From a virus: a stretch of DNA of 64,000 nt. The position numbers and the translations under genes were made by a program. Within the stretch, counting starts at the first letter, position 1, and each line of letters begins with the position of its first letter. Where the stretch lies: positions 11,175-75,174 of IMG/VR virus record IMGVR_UViG_3300031669_000016. One strand, given 5' to 3'. The notes below the pieces were generated by a model. The model had not been told where the DNA came from, searched no databases, and saw only the letters and a program-made list of their open reading frames with translations. Positions 1,835 to 29,725 of this stretch are shown piece after piece.

Positions 1835-2412
1835 TGACACAACCAGCATACCGCGAAGCCTCGATTACAGAGCATGTGCGACAAAGCCTGGGCTTCCACA
1901 TCCGCACCGGGACCGTGGAGACCTATGACCTAGCGACTGGTGTATATGCCGAGCGGAAACTTACTGACATCGTACCCGGCATCATCATTCGACCTGCCTC
2001 ACGCACCTACCGCGGCATGCCGACGATTGATCTGCGGGACAACGAAGATCTCAAGCCCTATGTCACCTGGACGAAACGCGCCGACGGGCCGATTCAAGAC
2101 GCGCTCTATGGCGGCGGACACAAAGACGTCTCGTACTGGGAGATTGATGTGCGGCTCGGTGAGCAGACCGTGTTTCAACGTGACGCCGTCGAGGACTGGC
2201 TGACCGCGTTTTTGGGTGCCAAGGAAACCAAGGACGTCTACTTCTACCATTACGATTCCGAGGCGGCACCCTCGGTGAGCCGAGGCGATGTGATCGCGAC
2301 CATGCTGATTCAAGACGTGGTTAGCCAAGACCATCTTGACGTCGCCATGGCACGTGGCGAGGATAGCTGGTTGGTTCTCAACTTCACGGTCAAAGTACCA
2401 AAACTGGGGTGA
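1834..2412 (+). CDS. Putative tail terminator-like protein
   Basis: ATG at 1834 overlaps the previous stop and follows a GAGGGGG RBS; size and synteny fit. Confidence 0.4.
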   Translation: MTQPAYREASITEHVRQSLGFHIRTGTVETYDLATGVYAERKLTDIVPGIIIRPASRTYRGMPTIDLRDNEDLKPYVTWTKRADGPIQDALYGGGHKDVSYWEIDVRLGEQTVFQRDAVEDWLTAFLGAKETKDVYFYHYDSEAAPSVSRGDVIATMLIQDVVSQDHLDVAMARGEDSWLVLNFTVKVPKLG

Positions 2413-3923
2413 TTCGGTTGGGCAAACCTATTAGGATAGGATGGTTCTCGGATTGGGCCTACGCACCCACCGGATTCGGGACTGTCGCACGTAATGTACT
2501 CACACGGCTCAACGCCATGCCCGAGTTCGAGGTCCGGCAACTTGCCATAGGCTATGATCCGTGGCAGGCCTTAGGAGCAGTCAAAGATCCGGTTCAGTAT
2601 CGAGAAGCCGTTGATCGTTTCCGAGACACGCGCGTCGACGGGTGGTCTCGTGATCTGCCAAGTCCGGTCGGCTTTCCATGCGATTCACCCCTTGATGCCA
2701 ACGACTACGGACAGTCATCTCTGCAGCTCTGGATCGACCGCTTCGCCATAGACGTGCTGGTCTGCAACTTCGATCCGTGGATGACGGCGTGGATGCCGTG
2801 TCAGGGTACGCAGCAAAACCTTCGTTGTCCAGTCATCTACTACCAGCCCATTGACGGCGAGGTCTGGGGCCATCATCTCCCGATCCATCTCTTCAAGTTG
2901 CCGAAGCGGAGACTCGCCCGTATCGCCTGGCGTGACTTCATGCTGGCCCAAGAATACACCGTTCTCTACGGTGACTGGGCACGGCAACTATTCCTCGACG
3001 AACTCGATGAAGGTGAGCGCGCCAAACTCGACGGCCGATTAGATGTCATCCCCCACGGCGTAGACCTCAAGACATTCGTGCCAGGATCGAAGATAGCGGC
3101 AAGGCAGACTCTTGGACTTCCAGAGAACGCCTACATCATCGGAATGGTGGCGACAAATCAAGCGCGCAAGAACTGGCCCGATTTCCTGAAAGCGGTCGGC
3201 GCGTTCCTACACAGCCACCCCAATGCTTATCTTGTTCCCTGGACCGAATGGTTACCCTCTATGCCGGGTGGATGGGATCTGACACGTCTGATTCCACTGA
3301 CCTGTCCGACAAAGCGGGTGGTACGGATCGATCTCGCAATGGTAGATGAGACACCACCCGTCGAACTCCTCGCCACGCTGTATCAAGCCTTAGATGTCCA
3401 CGTCTTATGGTCAATGGGTGAAGGCTGCGGACTTCCACACCTAGAGGCCCAGGCCTGTGGACGACCCAGCCTAGCAGTTGACTACGCCGGTGTCACCGAC
3501 TACTTCTCTGATGACTACATGCGTGTGCCCTATACCGAAACGGTTACCGCATCAGGTAACTGCATCGAACGGGCGCGCGGCGATACCGGCATCTTACTGC
3601 AAAAACTGGCCCAGCTCTGTCACGACCATGACTTGCGGGATCGTTTAGGGACCAATGCTGCGCACTATGCGCGTGCGCATTGGAACTGGGATCATATCGT
3701 GTTGCAATGGCGCGAACTGATCATGCGTGCGTACAAGGAGGGTCGTCGGTCATGCGATTCAGATGCATCGTCTGCGGCCGAATCGAATCCGGACAGTCCG
3801 ATGGCTACACCTGCCTTGACTGTGAGCGTGGAGAGCGGAGACGTCTCCACTGCCGACGAGGAGGTGGGAAGAGGTGGAGAAGCCATGGCGCGGATCGGCC
3901 CCGTCTCGTCGCGCGCCAATTGA
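2409..3923 (+). CDS. Glycosyltransferase, GT4 (GT-B fold)
   Basis: PTGFGTV N-terminus, IPHGVD, NQARKN and EGCGLPHLEAQACG (EX7E) motifs. Confidence 0.9.
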   Translation: MIRLGKPIRIGWFSDWAYAPTGFGTVARNVLTRLNAMPEFEVRQLAIGYDPWQALGAVKDPVQYREAVDRFRDTRVDGWSRDLPSPVGFPCDSPLDANDYGQSSLQLWIDRFAIDVLVCNFDPWMTAWMPCQGTQQNLRCPVIYYQPIDGEVWGHHLPIHLFKLPKRRLARIAWRDFMLAQEYTVLYGDWARQLFLDELDEGERAKLDGRLDVIPHGVDLKTFVPGSKIAARQTLGLPENAYIIGMVATNQARKNWPDFLKAVGAFLHSHPNAYLVPWTEWLPSMPGGWDLTRLIPLTCPTKRVVRIDLAMVDETPPVELLATLYQALDVHVLWSMGEGCGLPHLEAQACGRPSLAVDYAGVTDYFSDDYMRVPYTETVTASGNCIERARGDTGILLQKLAQLCHDHDLRDRLGTNAAHYARAHWNWDHIVLQWRELIMRAYKEGRRSCDSDASSAAESNPDSPMATPALTVSVESGDVSTADEEVGRGGEAMARIGPVSSRAN

Positions 3924-4611
3924 AGGAAGGGTCGTTGTTTTCCCCATCAAGAACGAGCGATACAGCGATGTCATCGCTTATCTCCAATCCTGGGACGGAC
4001 GGGCGCGAGAGCTAGTCGTCGTCGCCGACTGCAAGCCTCTCGTCAAGCAGGCCTTGGAGGGGTGCCGGTTTCCCGGTGGGCTTCGTATCTGGTACGTCGA
4101 ACAGGACCACTTCCGCTACCGCGGCCTCTCCGGTGCTTATGAGCAAGGCGTTGTATTCGCGTTGACCCTGCCCATGGCAGAATGGGTCATAACCGTGGAT
4201 TGTGGGACCTGGCAGCCATCCCAGATCACTGCCGCACTTGATGCAACCGTATCGGAGCGTGCTTGGTTTGGTGTGCGTCCACTAACCGGTGGACGTTCCC
4301 GCCTCAAACTCTTTCTCACCCAATTCGGTGGCGCGCTGATCCGCCGTCGCACCGGTGTTGGCATAATCGATCCGACCTGCGGCTATCGGGCCTATGCGGC
4401 CGAGACACTACGCGAAATCGACTTCGCCGCCAACGGCGTCCCTAATCGGCTTTACCACGCCAAGCTCGCAGTACAAGTCCAGTGTGTTGTTGCCCTGGCC
4501 TACATCGGCGAGTTTCTCTGTACCCACCGCCCGACTCCATCGAAGATGCGGCTGCGCGACGCAGTTACCGCGCTCTGGTACGTACTCCGAGGAGGGTTGG
4601 GTCATGTTTGA
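3874..4611 (+). CDS. GT2 / polyprenol-phosphate-mannose synthase-like glycosyltransferase (divergent)
   Basis: VVVFPIKNE start, ITVDC and DPTCGYRAY motifs. Confidence 0.7.
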   Translation: MEKPWRGSAPSRRAPIEGRVVVFPIKNERYSDVIAYLQSWDGRARELVVVADCKPLVKQALEGCRFPGGLRIWYVEQDHFRYRGLSGAYEQGVVFALTLPMAEWVITVDCGTWQPSQITAALDATVSERAWFGVRPLTGGRSRLKLFLTQFGGALIRRRTGVGIIDPTCGYRAYAAETLREIDFAANGVPNRLYHAKLAVQVQCVVALAYIGEFLCTHRPTPSKMRLRDAVTALWYVLRGGLGHV

Positions 4612-5386
4612 TGGACTCGTCAGCGTTATTGTCACGAGTTGGAACCGTGAAGAGGTGGTTGACTGCCTTGTCTCGATCTCTCGCCACACCGACGAGACTA
4701 CCTACGAAGTGATTGTGACCGACAACGGGTCGGATGAGGGCTTGCAGCGAGAACTCCAAAAATGCCAGCACTGTGGTCTTATCAATAGGTTGCTGTTGCG
4801 ATCGCCGGGAGACTGCCAGTCCTGGGCGGCATCAATGAACGAGGCTGTTCTGGCCAGTCAAGGCATGTGGCTGGTCGTTCCGAGCCTTGCCAACGACTTC
4901 ATCGTCACCCCTAACTGGCTCGGCGCGATGGGGCAAGTTGCGCGGCGTGACGATGCTAGACGTGTCCACTGGGCATTCGCTGTGACTCAAGATGGACAGC
5001 AGATGCAGGCCGAGGGCTTCGGTGGCTATGTCTTAGAACCGGCGCGCTACGCCCACGATCCAAACGACGATCCCGACTACACCGGACACGCCTTGCTGCA
5101 CCGCGGTCTGTGGGATGCGGTCGGTCCCTATGATACCCAGTTCGAGCCGATCTATATGGAGGATGTGGACTGGGGTATTCGACTCCACATGTACTTGTCC
5201 AGTGAGATCGATCCTGTAGCGGCCTTGCAGTACCGGCCCGCCATTCAACTCGTGCCCGACGCTGTTTTGATCCACACCAAGATCCATACCGTTCGAGGTC
5301 ATGGTGCCGCGATGTGGGGTCGGAACCGCGACCGACTCTTAGCGAAGTATCCAGCAATCAAACAAGCACTGGAGGCGCAGCGATGA
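4604..5386 (+). CDS. Glycosyltransferase, GT2
   Basis: VSVIVTSWN, VIVTDNGS and YMEDVDWGIR motifs; ATG 4604 follows GGAGGG. Confidence 0.88.
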   Translation: MFDGLVSVIVTSWNREEVVDCLVSISRHTDETTYEVIVTDNGSDEGLQRELQKCQHCGLINRLLLRSPGDCQSWAASMNEAVLASQGMWLVVPSLANDFIVTPNWLGAMGQVARRDDARRVHWAFAVTQDGQQMQAEGFGGYVLEPARYAHDPNDDPDYTGHALLHRGLWDAVGPYDTQFEPIYMEDVDWGIRLHMYLSSEIDPVAALQYRPAIQLVPDAVLIHTKIHTVRGHGAAMWGRNRDRLLAKYPAIKQALEAQR

Positions 5387-10005: not shown

Positions 10006-13000
10006 CTGCCAAGCGCTCAATATTCCTATTTGCTCGGAATAGGCTTGGACCCGGTCACCGTCCAAAGGCTGCAGGCACAGCTAATCCAGCTCGCCCAGCA
10101 GGCCTCGAAAGTCGGTACGGCCCAGGCGCGTACCACTGTGGGTGTCACCCCACAGCAAACCACCGCAACCCAACGCGCCACACGTCAGGCCGCGGCTGGC
10201 TTTGCTACTACAAGTAAGCAGGCTACGCAGGCAACCCAAGCAGTCAAAGGCTTCGGTGGCGCGATGCAAGAGGCGGGTCGCGGAATCTCTCATGCCGCGG
10301 GCAAGGTCCTTCTGTGGAGCGTGGCAACAGGTGCGATCTACGGTTCACTGCAAGCCCTCCGCGGTGCTGTCGAGACCATCAACGACGTGGACTTCGCGTT
10401 GACTGGTTTGAGGAAGGTATACGCCGGAAACATCGCTGATCTCGGTCAGATGAAGAGGGCCGCGGTCGATATGGCGATGGCTTATGGTTCTGGAATCTCC
10501 GACGTCCTGAATGGTATGCGCGACTGGGCTCGGCAGGGCTACCGTGCTCGTGATGTAATCGAGTTGACAAGGGTTAGCTTGCTTGCCCAGAACATCGCCG
10601 AGATGGATGCTGTACAAGCAACCCGCTACTTGACGGCGGCCCTGAATCAGTTTGATCTTGAGGCCACTCAAGCAATTACTGTCCTCGACACGTGGAACGA
10701 ACTAAGCAACCGCTATGCCGCAACGACGCAGGACATCGCGGAAGGCACTGCCCGCCTCGGCCGCACCGCCCACGATGCTGGCCTCTCGATCCAAGAAGCC
10801 AGCGCGATGGTCGCCGTTCTAGTCGAGCAGACGAAGCGATCGGGCCAAGAAATCGGAACGGCGATGCGTACCGTTCTGACCTACGCCTATCGCGAGCGCA
10901 ACGTCAAAGAGCTTGAGAAGATCGGCATTTATGTTCGCCGTGAGCGGGGCGAACTGCTGGCTATGATGGACGTTTTGACGCAGCTATCTGTCAAGTGGGA
11001 GGTACTTAGCGATACCCAGCGTCAGGCCATTGCTGAAGCCTTCGGCGTGCGGCGGGTCACCGAGTTCCGGACCCTAATCCAGGGCATGCCCGCCATCCTT
11101 GAGGCGACGCGCATCGCGTATGACAGCCAAGGCTCCGCGTTGCGGGAGAACATCATCTTTCTGGATTCCCTGCAGGTCCGTTATGGGCGGTTGAAGGCCG
11201 CGCTTCAAGCACTCGCGGTCGGAACGGAAACGCAGGATACGTTGAAGAGCATTGTCAGCGTACTCACCAGCCTCGTTACCGTTGTCGATAAGGTTGGCAT
11301 CAAGACCATCTTCGCTGCGGGCGCTCTGGTTCTGATCACGCGCTACACCCAAGCCTACTCGGCCGCGCTGATTACGTTCCATACCCAAATGGTTTTGGGC
11401 ACACAAGCAGTAGCGGCAGGTACGGTGACAATGGCGGCATGGCAACTCCAGGTCAATGCTGCAACACTTGCCCTGCAGCGATTCTGGGTCACACTTGGTC
11501 CTGTTGGTTGGGCCGTGGCCGCTGTTGGTGTTGCTTTCGGGACTTGGAAGGCCATTGATGCTTATGTTTATCGCCATGAGCGTGCGGCACGTGGACTGGA
11601 GCGACAGGCCGAGGACATTGAGCAAACAACCCTGGAGGCGCTTCGCCGCGAAGAAGCTGGCTACCGCGCCCAGGTCGACGCGTTGACGCGGCGTGCCGAA
11701 CTGATCCAATCCTTACGTGATCAGTACGAAGCGGTTGGAAAGAGTACTGATAAGGCCGCGGACAAGCAAAAGCAGATGGCGAAGATCCTCGAACTGCTTC
11801 AAGCCGCAACGGGTGATGCCAGCTTAGCTTTACGCGACGGCTTAGCTCCCGCATTTGGCATCGTCGAGCGCGCCGCACAGAGCGCTCTTATCGGCATTAC
11901 CGATGCGATGGACAAGATGCGGGCCAGTATTGCCCAAACACTGCGGGGACAAATCCAGGGTATTAGGGGCGATATCGAACTGCGCAGAGATGCCGTCGAT
12001 AACTTTGCGAAGGCCGCGGAGAGAGAACGCAAGACGGTCCTTGGCATGTTCGACACTATTGCTAAGGGGCAGAAGCTGTATGTTGACCCCTTTGCCGGTG
12101 TGGATCGAAAAGATGCCGAGGCTGTGTTGTCTCGGACACATGAGATGAAGGATCTGTCCGGCCTGCAGACCGGTGTTACCAACAGGCTCAGCAATGCGGT
12201 GGGTGAGTACAACGTTGCGGCGGGTCGTCGAATCGAGTTGGAGGGTACACTCAAGACCACTGAACAAGCCCTACTCGAACTCGAAATGGAACGCGCCGAT
12301 CTTCCCAAAAGGATCGTATCGGATCCGGATCCGCTCGGCACTAAGAAAGCTGGTAAGAGCCTCCGCAGTTATCAGAATCAGGTCCGATCCGTTATCAATC
12401 TGGTACGCGAACTCCAACAGGCGATGCGGCGTATGGGCGCGGAAGGTCTCGGGCCGTGGTATCAAGAAATCCAACGCTTCGACCAGACTTGGGAGGATAT
12501 GCAGGACCGCGCGCTGATGGCGTTGGACCAGATCAATGAAACCTTGTCCGAAGATATCCCGGCACAGGCGCGCAAAGCCCTGCTTGGGGCACGTGACGAA
12601 CTGGTCGGCGTGCTCAACACCTTCGCTACTCAATATCCCCTAGAGTTCCAGCGCGCATGGGAACGTGCACTGCATATCATCCGCGGCGGTGCTGAGGCAT
12701 TACAGTTCCAGCTCCGTGAGTACCGCGAAGAGTTGGAGAAGACCCTAGCCGATTGGGTTCGGCGCGGTAAGATCACGCCCGACCAGGCAACGGAGATGCA
12801 ACGGCTCGCCACGCTGACCAAGCAATTCGAGGTCATCTCTAAGAGTGCCGATCTGCTGGAACGGCAGTACCAGTTCGAACGACAAATCACAGAACTCGAA
12901 ATGGGGAAGGGTTGGGAGTTCTCGCGTGAACGCGCCGAGATGTTGCGGCGTGATGTGGAGCAGGCCGCCGGCGCGTTGACCGCGTTACTACTGGCTGCTC

Positions 13001-26836: not shown

Positions 26837-27727
26837 TCAGAACTCACCGCCATCCTTCCACTTCGTGGTGTAGTCAGCACCTACGGTAACTGGCAGTCGG
26901 GCCTGCCAACGCCCCCGCCAACGGTTGTAGTTGAGCGTATACATCAACTGATCGTAGTTCAGAAGGCCGGCCGGGAGCTCTCTGATGCCCAACCCTTCGG
27001 CGACTGCACGCGCCTGATCACCATAGGCAGGTTGGGAACCGGCCGCACCTCCACCATGGTCGGCTCGAATCGGTAAGGTGCGGATGTGCCATCCCGCTGC
27101 CAACCACGCACAGCAGACCTCGCGGTCGTACCAGTGATGGAGGCCGGGATAGTCCTGATCGAGAAGAGTTGGGATTGTGTCGGTACGATAGAAGATGCCG
27201 CAGCCGTCAAGAGTAGCCGAAGCCATTCCGTCATCAGGTGTCCACGCGCCATGGATGCGCCATATCTCACCGGTTCCGTTGCCCCCCCATTGCTTACCAA
27301 TCAGACGGGAGTGGGTACCGATACGCCCCCCATCCGGTGCCAGTCCGAACGCACCGACTAAACCGGCAAGGCCCAGCTTCGCATCTTCCTCGAAGGCGTG
27401 TGCGATACAAAGATCCCATCCGACATCCCAGATCAAGACATCGTAATGGATGAAGGCGAGGATGTCGGCATCGGTGTAGTCGGCGGCGTATCGGATCGAC
27501 TCGAAAACGCCCAAGCTTTGATCCGGCACGAAGTAGCGGGTGTGTCCCCGGTCTTTCGTGATGGTGCCGCAAAGTCCGGCATGCGTTGTAATCACGTCGA
27601 GATCAGGGGTGTTGTCGACAACAATGATCTCGGTGCCCGAATCGGAAACTGTCCGCACGACCTGAGCAAGACATGCCTCAAGTAGGTCTGTTCGACCAAG
27701 TACTGGAATCGCGACTGCGACCCTCAT
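26837..27727 (-). CDS. Glycosyltransferase, GT2
   Basis: VAIPV, IIVVDN, FIHYDV, LDG and HWYD motifs. Confidence 0.85.
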   Translation of the reverse strand: MRVAVAIPVLGRTDLLEACLAQVVRTVSDSGTEIIVVDNTPDLDVITTHAGLCGTITKDRGHTRYFVPDQSLGVFESIRYAADYTDADILAFIHYDVLIWDVGWDLCIAHAFEEDAKLGLAGLVGAFGLAPDGGRIGTHSRLIGKQWGGNGTGEIWRIHGAWTPDDGMASATLDGCGIFYRTDTIPTLLDQDYPGLHHWYDREVCCAWLAAGWHIRTLPIRADHGGGAAGSQPAYGDQARAVAEGLGIRELPAGLLNYDQLMYTLNYNRWRGRWQARLPVTVGADYTTKWKDGGEF

Positions 27728-27766
27728 CTAGTCTCACCCCGATGTATCCCACCAACAATCTACTAT

Positions 27767-27795
27767 AGTATACCACAGTACCTACGGGTTGTCAT
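27767..27795 (-). promoter_or_regulatory. Sigma70 promoter for the GT2-sigma-phosphatase operon
   Basis: ATGACA-17bp-TATACT with an extended TG. Confidence 0.7.
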
Positions 27796-27848
27796 CTTTG
27801 CATGCCTAGATCCTACCCATAATCGAAGATTTGAGGCGAAAGCTTCGA

Positions 27849-28226
27849 CCAGCATCCTCGCGCGCGTAGGAGTGACTGTGTGGTATACCATAGTAATCGT
27901 GCCCTCGCGCGCGTGGAAGTAACCAACAGTAAGGCGGCAACGGAACCGGCGAGGTCGTCGTGCCCTCGCGCGCGTGGAGGTAACGTGTGGCGCGTTGGGT
28001 TTCTGTGGTTTGCTGGTCGTGCCCTCGCGCGCGTGGGAGTAACGGCCAATATCCTACCCATCTTAGGCAACACATCGTCGTGCCCTCGCGTGCGTGGAAA
28101 TAACCGCCCTTGTTTCGTCACTGAAGGCGGTCCAACCGTCGTGCCCTCGCGCGCGAGGGAGTAACCCGGAGGCCGCCAGGAAGAGGGGGAATCCAGAGGT
28201 CGTGCCCTCGCGCGCGAGGGAGTAAC
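27849..28226 (-). CRISPR. CRISPR array: 6 full and 1 degenerate 28-bp repeats (GTTACTCCCTCGCGCGCGAGGGCACGAC) with 6 spacers
   Basis: Repeats at 28199-28226, 28138-28165, 28077-28104, 28016-28043, 27957-27984, 27896-27923 and degenerate 27849-27876. Spacers are 33, 33, 33, 31, 33 and 19 bp. Repeat stem CCCTCG/CGAGGG. Degeneracy increases leftward, placing the leader next to the effector. Confidence 0.96.
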
Positions 28227-28361
28227 ACTGCCATACCTATCGTCCAAACATGTTTCATCACAATCTCTACCCTCCCTGCGCGCGCCCCGGCGAGGCCGGG
28301 GATTAGGATTTGATCCGCGACCAGCCTTCTCCGGGCTGGTGGCAGGTCGGGGACCCACGAC
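28227..28361 (-). ncRNA. Candidate tracrRNA / leader
   Basis: Anti-repeat segments at 28356-28361 and 28272-28285; hairpins at 28320-28340 and 28285-28301. Confidence 0.5.
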
Positions 28362-29725
28362 TATTTAGCCCCCACTCTCAACGCTCCAAAGGAGCGGTGG
28401 AACCCTCGATAGCCTCCTGATGTATTCCACTCCGCCTTGCGATAAAACGCCCGCCGAGCGATGTTCACAGCAGCTGCCTCGTCGGCGTCGAAATTGACAT
28501 CACAAGCCGGACAGTAGAGATCTTCACCTTCCCGTTTGGCATCCTCCCCACACCGAGGACAAATCAACGATGAGTAAGCAGCGAAGACCTCGCGTGGTGG
28601 TAACATACCAGCCATCCGCAACTTGTAGCTGAGGATATGACCCATCTTGGCATACTGGGAACGTATAAATGCGCCGCTTGTCTGTAGGTTGAGATCTTCC
28701 ATCACTACCAACGAGTGGTGCTCAACGGCCAACGCAACCAACGCATTGGCGATTGTGTGGAGCATCTGCTCTTGGTGTCGACGCTGCCAGGCTTGACGAC
28801 GCACATGCCGACCACGCCTCTGTGCGGCCTGGCGCTTCCGTCCCAATAGGATCTGTAGAGGACGCACGTCCCGACCAAGGCTCCCAACTCTGAGTGGTCG
28901 ACCCTCTTTGTCTATGATTGCGTATGCCGCCTGTTTGATGATGCCGCGATCAACTCCAAGATAGGTTTCCTCTTCACCCCGCTCCATACTCTCGACTTGG
29001 AACTCGAAGCTTATATGTAGGAAGTACTCGCCATCGCGCCGACAAAGGCAGGCACAGCGCGCCTTCCCTTTCGTGAGATATTCCTCTTCGTGCCATATCC
29101 CAAACGCGAGTGGGAAACGCAACCTTGTAGGCTTCTGTGGCTTCGGCTGCACCGGTAGTGATACCACCCACTTCTCGTTGTCGAGTCGTTCGAGAGCAAA
29201 ATCTCGGGCGCGTACATAGAGAAGCGGCCTGACAATCTCGCGCTCCTCACGTAGCAGACGGGATTGCCACGCTTGGTGGTCGAATGGATCACCAACCCAC
29301 TCAGCGGCCTCTGCAAGGGCCTTCTGGTACCCATCAGACTGATATCCGTACAGTGGTGAGGGGTACTGGGGTTCATCAGTTGCGTCCTCATGGTTCTTCC
29401 TATCTTCCCAGGCCTGTCGTAGTTTGCAGTACGAAACAAGGTTCGTTAGGATATCTGATACTAAGCCGTCATATAGAGCGCTTGGCAAATCCGTTGCTGA
29501 TAGCAAAGGACGGATTTCCTTCATTGCATTGAAGGGGCTGGGGAGTCTCTTACCATCGTGGAGATCACGAATCCACAGATCAGCCATGGGGCGGCAGCGC
29601 TCCAATGTATCTATATAGGCCTTGCTGTAACGGGCGAATACCTGGTCTAGGAGGGCACGTTTTCCAGTACCGGGATTGTATAGTTTGAGGATGGCTGTTT
29701 TCTGTACGATGACTGTGCACCTCAT
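28361..29725 (-). CDS. Compact type V CRISPR effector (TnpB/Cas12f-like RuvC nuclease)
   Basis: 454 aa; RuvC-I YLGVDRG, RuvC-II VVMEDL, Zn finger CPRC...CPAC, RuvC-III DADEAAAVNIA; adjacent to the array. Confidence 0.88.
   Translation of the reverse strand: MRCTVIVQKTAILKLYNPGTGKRALLDQVFARYSKAYIDTLERCRPMADLWIRDLHDGKRLPSPFNAMKEIRPLLSATDLPSALYDGLVSDILTNLVSYCKLRQAWEDRKNHEDATDEPQYPSPLYGYQSDGYQKALAEAAEWVGDPFDHQAWQSRLLREEREIVRPLLYVRARDFALERLDNEKWVVSLPVQPKPQKPTRLRFPLAFGIWHEEEYLTKGKARCACLCRRDGEYFLHISFEFQVESMERGEEETYLGVDRGIIKQAAYAIIDKEGRPLRVGSLGRDVRPLQILLGRKRQAAQRRGRHVRRQAWQRRHQEQMLHTIANALVALAVEHHSLVVMEDLNLQTSGAFIRSQYAKMGHILSYKLRMAGMLPPREVFAAYSSLICPRCGEDAKREGEDLYCPACDVNFDADEAAAVNIARRAFYRKAEWNTSGGYRGFHRSFGALRVGAK

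Follow-up and report, generated by a model that had tools for sequence, protein, structure and literature searches.

A predicted tracrRNA with two anti-repeats between the effector gene and the array of a phage-borne miniature type V CRISPR system

The window that we analysed, a stretch of 64,000 nucleotides from a 75-kb virus contig, carries on its minus strand a gene for a miniature nuclease of the TnpB/Cas12f-like type and, 134 nt beyond the end of that open reading frame, the start of a CRISPR array (Table 1). The locus raises the question of whether the short stretch between gene and array encodes an RNA that pairs with the repeats and forms part of the guide of the nuclease. An initial annotation of the sequence had proposed that a tracrRNA lies at this position and carries two anti-repeats, one short and one long. 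The comparison of related loci described below leads us to propose that positions 28382 to 28272 of the minus strand encode the tracrRNA that serves this miniature type V CRISPR system of a phage, an RNA predicted to pair with each repeat at two sites; we assign this reading a probability of roughly 0.85.

The effector gene and its array

The effector is a type V nuclease by its split RuvC triad and by a C-terminal zinc ribbon that is inserted in the RuvC domain. The D-E-D triad (D259, E343 and D415) is intact in the window, and both the triad and the zinc ligands (C389, C392, C405 and C408) are invariant across 24 homologs. The protein matches PF07282, the Cas12f1-like TNB zinc ribbon family, above the cut-off (E 3.7e-10). 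Among the NCBIfam models, those for Cas12e, TnpB and Cas12f2 partially match the RuvC half, all of them far under their cut-offs; the Cas12f2 model NF049972, for example, reaches 68 bits where its cut-off is 450, and its match covers the C-terminal half only.

A phmmer search of the PDB gave the RuvC domain of Cas12e as the best sequence match (E 4e-9), and CnCas12f1 was the only Cas12f protein to match (E 1.2e-4), Un1Cas12f1 and AsCas12f not being found by this search. When an AF2 model of the effector (pLDDT 81) was submitted to Foldseek, the closest structures were AsCas12f, CnCas12f1 and OsCas12f (E 5e-18, approximately 15% identity), and Cas12e and TnpB structures were matched as well. 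By these sequence searches, the effector is outside type V-F (Cas12f) in the narrow sense, the resemblance at approximately 15% identity being one of fold only. The protein may belong to a named or unnamed V-U/TranC clade, and its family is one without a characterised member or a close solved relative. About 40 to 44 relatives are present in 5.8 billion protein clusters, and some 20 of these are 50–61% identical to the effector.

The neighbours of the effector gene are phage replication and recombination genes. Family searches found no cas1, cas2 or cas4 among the neighbouring genes, and neither tnpA nor transposon ends were seen in the seven neighbouring ORFs examined.

The repeat of the array is a GC-rich palindrome, and the spacers measure 33, 33, 33, 31, 33 and 19 nt, a geometry (28 + 33 nt) that resembles that of class 1 arrays. 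In repeats 1 and 2, a palindrome of 16 nt is perfect and gives these repeats a hairpin of their own. In four of the six repeats (3–6), a T-to-A change places an A·A mismatch both in this hairpin and in the long duplex with the scaffold that is described below. A scan of viral contigs with the repeat 16-mer found no second array of the repeat class of the window; all 62 matches were single, non-arrayed and attributable to chance. Spacer 4 (27985–28015) matches the phage's own genome at 10153–10183 on the plus strand in 29 of 31 bases, and CCA stands directly 5′ of the match, in keeping with a 5′ PAM and with guides read off the minus strand. The sole sigma-70-like promoter match in the interval 27700–28700 lies at 27795–27767 on the minus strand, just beyond the array and beside the truncated last spacer.

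Table 1. Positions of the features of the locus in the window.
Feature	Positions	Strand	Details
Effector gene, miniature type V, TnpB/Cas12f-like	28361-29725	minus	454 aa; RuvC D259/E343/D415 and C4 zinc ribbon
Predicted tracrRNA scaffold	28272-28382	minus	approximately 102-111 nt; P1, P2, P3 and 3′ anti-repeat; consensus fold of 12 loci
P1 hairpin	28349-28373	minus	7 bp; arms 28373-28367 and 28355-28349; 11-nt loop 28366-28356
Short anti-repeat GUCGUG, in P1 loop	28356-28361	minus	predicted to pair with the last six repeat bases, CACGAC, adjoining the spacer
P2 long helix	28312-28348	minus	15 bp; 28348-28334 with 28326-28312; loop CGGAGAA
P3 hairpin	28285-28301	minus	7 bp; CUC loop; consensus fold
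Long anti-repeat GCGCGCG-C-AGGGAG	28272-28285	minus	13 bp with repeat positions 5-17; bulge C28278 (RNAduplex)
Linker, anti-repeat to first repeat	28227-28271	minus	45 nt; apparently unconstrained; hypervariable in soil samples
CRISPR array	27849-28226	minus	six 28-nt repeats and one degenerate terminal (seventh) repeat

A three-helix RNA conserved among related loci

On the window alone, the two complementarities between the intergenic region and the repeat are only modestly unusual. The best intergenic:repeat duplex was matched by 14 of 1000 dinucleotide shuffles (p about 0.014) and was reached by 13 of 799 windows across the 64 kb, with those in the array included, and the hexamer GTCGTG was present in 136 of 2000 shuffles (6.8%). 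Moreover, the repeat is rich in G and C and palindromic, and a sequence that can pair with its 5′ half will therefore also resemble its 3′ half. The folding energy of the single sequence equals that of its shuffles (z −0.14), a measure that is uninformative in GC-rich DNA, and Rfam gave no match up to E 10 on either strand between 27000 and 30000. It is the covariation in related loci that raises the observation above chance.

Relatives were gathered by metagenome and viral scans, which yielded 11 close loci and more than 15 distant homologs. A consensus fold was derived from 12 loci, namely the window and 11 relatives, with effectors that are 55–61% identical. In all 11 close loci the same three-helix RNA follows the effector gene, and 94.9% of the cells in the 12-sequence alignment are paired. 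Compensatory changes, in which both sides of a pair are altered, were observed in 14 of 28 pairs, as compared with 3–5 in slid controls, and none of 500 shuffles reached this number. Helix by helix, P1 is 98.8% paired with two compensatory pairs, P3 is 100% paired with three, and P2 shows compensatory changes in 9 of 14 pairs together with an invariant U·G pair; the P2 helices of the relatives have extra stems of variable form inserted apically. The invariant or frequent U·G and G·U pairs (for example columns 42–109 in 12 of 12 loci and columns 19–31 in 11 of 12) would be A·C mismatches on the opposite strand, and we therefore conclude that the scaffold RNA runs on the strand of the effector gene. 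As for the two hairpins that the initial annotation had placed between the anti-repeats, the one at 28340–28320 proved to be the top of the 15-bp helix P2, and the one at 28301–28285 is P3 itself, with 7 bp and a CUC loop.

Across the loci, identity amounts to 86% in P1 and 90% in P3, to 70% in the adjacent 450 nt of coding DNA and to 66% in the anti-repeat, where it follows the repeats. In the window, the 5′ arm of P1 falls within the final codons of the effector ORF and the stop codon lies in the P1 loop, the first G of GTCGTG being the last base of the stop TAG (28363–28361). The stop codon also falls inside the P1 loop in L015 and L019 and precedes P1 in most relatives, and the nucleotide sequence of P1 is kept while the position of the stop shifts. 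Because P1 is conserved whatever the reading frame or the position of the stop, it is under constraint at the level of RNA and not of coding. The overlap with the stop codon, which had been read as an omegaRNA-like trait, is thus incidental. The scaffold is present in a single copy in its own genome, and the exact P1 core had no match in the scan of viral contigs.

The boundaries of the element can also be followed in soil populations. In the soil run that is probably the source of the record, a 112-nt contig corresponds exactly to 28271–28382 and has a depth of 326 as compared with 82–86 for the flanks, an excess of approximately fourfold. Two other soil samples gave contigs covering 28199–28382 with five substitutions and 22 gapped bases, all inside 28228–28270, and without differences in the tracr block or in the first repeat. 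Branch points of the assembly graphs coincide with the ends of the scaffold, at 28382/28383 and 28270/28271, in three soil samples. One identical tracrRNA thus appears to be common to several strains or effector variants. One variant in the soil data diverges upstream of 28382, and its 30 visible bases, a short consensus, are only suggestive of a diverged effector C-terminus with a stop before P1. The functional unit appears to consist of 28382–28272 and the repeats, the 45-nt linker being free to vary.

A motif of the form GCAAAC-N4-GUUU(U) stands 2–6 nt before the first repeat in L016, L017, L020, L022 and L023, and the window carries GAAACAUGUUUGG at 28258–28246, 19 nt before its first repeat. 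The motif may mark the end of a leader or act as a weak terminator.

Pairing with the repeats and alternative readings

The hexamer GTCGTG at 28361–28356 overlaps the stop codon and is the exact complement of CACGAC at the 3′ end of the repeat, as the initial annotation had stated. When the 3′ half of each P1 loop was compared with the last six bases of the repeat at the same locus, all six positions could pair in 20 of 20 loci. Five haplotype pairs were found: GUCGUG/CACGAC (the window), GUCACA/UGUGAC, GUCGUA/UACGAC, GUCGUA/UAUGAC (with one G·U pair) and GUUACA/UGUAAC. Compensatory changes affect four of the six positions, and full pairing was retained in only 2 of 120 permutations of the haplotypes. 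Within the window, the short pairing site is intact in all six functional repeats.

The long anti-repeat was likewise present as described, RNAduplex giving 13 bp and one bulge between GCGCGCG-C-AGGGAG (28285–28272) and the repeat. With the two leader-proximal repeats this duplex has no mismatch, and with the remaining ones it contains the A·A mismatch. At each locus, the tail directly 3′ of P3 can pair over 12–17 bp with the cognate repeat, either in its 5′ part or in its middle, and such a match was seen in four unrelated repeat families, two with repeats of 28 nt, one of 36 nt and one of 35 nt. In a 10 × 10 matrix of duplex energies, the cognate tail:repeat blocks were the strongest; the L036 tail, for example, reached −35.6 kcal/mol with the repeat of its own locus, and the best value with a foreign repeat was −19.0. 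Private changes in the repeats of L021 and L022 are mirrored by their tails. The repeat class of the window is represented by this one independent locus, and its long anti-repeat rests on positional homology and strain variants. The segment 28272–28285 could also be taken for a degenerate half-repeat, the repeat being palindromic; this reading was set aside, as relatives with repeats that are non-palindromic there carry true anti-repeats. The proposal that effector and array are separated by a tracrRNA with two anti-repeats, a short one and a long one, is thus strongly supported by the covariation of the fold and of both duplexes, by the conservation of 28271–28382, and, across homologous loci, by the compensatory pairs of the fold, the five short haplotype pairs and the four repeat families.

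The mechanism that best explains these results is that the RNA folds into P1, P2 and P3, and that GUCGUG in the P1 loop would pair with CACGAC of every repeat, directly 5′ of the spacer, to give a duplex of the pseudoknot type by which the guide is positioned. The tail that follows P3 at the 3′ end would pair with repeat positions 5–17 and form the long repeat:anti-repeat duplex, which may also direct the processing of pre-crRNA. Both duplexes together would make a dual guide of the guide-pseudoknot-stem plan, and the 454-aa RuvC nuclease would bind this guide and cut DNA. The scaffold RNA is expected to be expressed and stable and would be needed for interference. No sigma-70-like promoter or intrinsic terminator was predicted on the minus strand between gene and array, and the only terminator-like minus-strand site in the scan lies inside the effector gene (28460–28448). 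Because no such signal separates gene, scaffold and array, the likeliest source of the scaffold would be a read-through transcript of the effector operon, from which it would be freed and then processed.

Co-folding, which had been suggested as a check on the proposal, gave, for the scaffold joined in cis through the linker to the first repeat, a predicted centroid fold that contains both duplexes. Such a fold would allow, on thermodynamic grounds, a transient single guide for spacer 1. The scope of a single guide is limited by the hypervariable linker and by the array itself, in which all of the six spacers but the first depend on a scaffold in trans.

These considerations bear on one alternative, namely that the RNA is an obligately cis, omegaRNA-like natural single guide, in which the scaffold remains attached to repeat 1 and its spacer and acts chiefly for that one guide. 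Scaffold and array do share one orientation, no promoter or terminator is predicted in the interval, both duplexes form in the cis fold, and distant relatives include loci fused by a loop of 4–9 nt and loci (L040, L004 and L039) with a single repeat only. However, six spacers are kept in the window, and all their repeats retain the short pairing site. The 45-nt linker, moreover, is hypervariable with indels, which is not what one would see in a maintained loop, and the linkers of close relatives measure anything between about 30 and 150 nt. We consider an obligate single guide improbable. The possibility that the complementarities arose by chance in GC-rich DNA, or that GGGAGG is the ribosome-binding site of a small downstream ORF, as the initial annotation had itself raised, would fit the weak statistics of the window alone and the GTG and ATG codons that follow the motif. 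Nevertheless, any ORF from there runs into the CRISPR array, and relatives that have neither GGGAGG nor a start codon at this place carry instead a sequence complementary to their own repeat. With structure and covariation far exceeding the controls, chance or a ribosome-binding site is the most improbable of the readings, and we have discarded the latter.

A further alternative is a system that uses crRNA only, in which the palindromic 28-nt repeat would form its own hairpin handle, as in Cas12a, Cas12j and Cas12r, and the intergenic RNA would be a stabiliser of the mRNA 3′ end, a leader or a regulator. The perfect 16-nt palindrome of repeats 1 and 2 would be in keeping with such a handle, and the 28 + 33 nt geometry is like that of class 1 arrays. 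A precedent is Cas12r of the Thermus Lalka phages, an effector of 564 aa with a 15-bp gap to its array that does not need a tracrRNA (bioRxiv 10.64898/2026.04.20.719267). Like the system described here, it combines a small type V effector carried by a phage with I-E-like repeats of 28–29 bp (29 bp in the Thermus phage) and spacers of 31–33 bp, in the absence of adaptation genes; Cas12r was not among the protein matches of the effector in the phage collection. What a crRNA-only system leaves unexplained is why two separate RNA segments vary together with the repeats across four unrelated families. In addition, the gap of 15 bp in Cas12r is to be set against a 112-nt invariant structured block here, and the fold of the effector is closest to Cas12f proteins, which are tracrRNA-dependent. 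We regard this alternative as quite improbable. The predicted presence of a conserved, covarying anti-repeat RNA places the system outside the tracrRNA-independent class (Cas12a/j/r-like), and we retain the tracrRNA reading in what follows.

Relation to known guides and to the wider family

[quoted passage not shown] The scaffold of the window has both elements of the Cas12f/TnpB type, a short anti-repeat in a loop, seen by covariation, and a long anti-repeat at the 3′ terminus, seen in the duplex matrix. As in the window, the Cas12f systems (Un1Cas12f1, AsCas12f, CnCas12f1 and OsCas12f) have a miniature effector, an array downstream and no adaptation genes, and their tracrRNA lies between gene and array, its loop pairing with guide-proximal repeat bases and its 3′ end forming the longer duplex. 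The two differ in that the Cas12f scaffold is 140 nt long as compared with about 102–111 nt here, and in that the loop-bearing hairpin is the third element in Cas12f, whereas it is the first here. Furthermore, Cas12f repeats are about 36–37 nt long, whereas those of the window are 28 nt and palindromic, and the system described here is phage-carried, unlike the Cas12f systems used for comparison. The guide architecture of Cas12p agrees with that of the window.

The omegaRNA of ISDra2 TnpB is likewise a scaffold of approximately 110 nt that begins at the 3′ end of the nuclease gene and has its pseudoknot partner near the 5′ end. TnpB omegaRNAs also lie on the same strand as the gene and downstream of it, and fused guides are found in distant relatives of the present family. 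In contrast to the omegaRNA, the RNA described here is split from a multi-spacer array and, in most relatives, does not overlap the ORF. The guide design is already known from Cas12f and TnpB and is no new principle.

According to papers that cite Jin et al. (Cell 2025), TranC systems are transposon-CRISPR intermediates with a TnpB-like nuclease of 300–600 aa and a guide derived from a split omegaRNA. The V-U groups, and the splitting and re-fusion of omegaRNAs, have been published as well (Altae-Tran et al. 2023, PMC10691335). In these accounts, TranC and V-U systems are like the present one in that a TnpB-like nuclease is linked only to an array, in that some examples are phage-borne, and in that fused and split forms occur in one family; the tested TranC clades described there have repeats of 32–38 nt as compared with 28 nt here. 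The window agrees with the general TranC/Cas12-U definition, being array-linked without cas1, cas2 or cas4 and having a split scaffold, with fused forms in distant relatives. The description of the RNA as an intermediate between omegaRNA and tracrRNA, made in the initial annotation, holds insofar as the scaffold is split here and fused forms are confined to distant relatives, but the term is a published evolutionary label (TranC) and not a new one.

A covariance model built from the close set found the scaffold, on the effector strand, beside homologs of 29–35% identity outside the training set. The matches were L039 (47 bits), L038 (39 bits) and also L027/L001, L026, L031, L040 and L002. The organisation of these loci varies. 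In L027, L035 and L040, the anti-repeat is joined to the first repeat via a loop of 4–9 nt. In L027/L001 (4410–4590) and L035 (about 4330–4500), the repeat so joined is the first of a real array, and the junction in this group reads, for example, CACUGCAAC-UGGG-GUUGCAGUG. Because the anti-repeat is fused to the first repeat in these loci, the first guide would be made in cis, and later ones would need a freed scaffold. In L040 (318–470), L004 (about 300–440) and L039 (1902–2090), the scaffold is followed by a single repeat-like segment and then by unique sequence; to judge from their sequences, these loci without an array look like natural single guides of the omegaRNA type. A third arrangement is seen in L002 (4434–4760), L031 (4425–4904) and L032/L033/L037, where the effector gene is followed directly by the array and the array by the scaffold, all on one strand. 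The P1 loop of this subgroup carries AUAGUCACAC.

A full-length homolog of the effector with 27% identity, annotated as hypothetical, is present in 182 records of cultured phages of Salinibacter ruber M8. In the sole record inspected (L117; OR896284.1, Salinibacter phage 4_20), the gene lies at 2339–3841 and a six-repeat array at 4441–4811, approximately 550 nt downstream, with repeats of roughly 30 nt that end in GCUGAAAG. The covariance model gave no match at this locus, and a manual search found two CTTTCA motifs and no convincing fold. The homolog would offer a culturable phage-host pair in which the effector family could be tested.

The close loci (L016–L036) and the window, with effectors 55–61% identical to that of the window, use four unrelated repeat families (28, 28, 36 and 35 nt), which comprise 28-nt palindromic repeats of class 1 likeness, a 36-nt GUUG...GAC type and a 35-nt type. 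The only part common to all four is the terminal GAC. In stem-loop geometry and in spacer length (33 nt), the 28-nt types resemble class 1 (I-E-like) arrays, and this suggests, at the level of sequence, that the arrays with 28-nt repeats were borrowed from hosts. Only tentatively do we put forward the broader view that this phage effector family keeps one scaffold, of which both anti-repeat modules would have been rewritten at least four times to fit unrelated repeats while the final GAC stayed constant, and that the family spans fused, solo, array-first and split forms.

The base-level bounds of the RNA, from P1 at 28373 to the anti-repeat at 28272, make this family of 454-aa nucleases one that could be tried as a very compact editor. 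The family also provides one protein lineage with split, fused and solo forms, which illustrates the published scenarios of omegaRNA splitting and re-fusion, and a natural series in which a tracrRNA tracks the turnover of repeats, its helices remaining fixed while both anti-repeat modules covary with four repeats. If the repeats were indeed borrowed from class 1 arrays of the host, the tracrRNA would be an adaptor that fits the phage effector to the array and the adaptation machinery of its current host.
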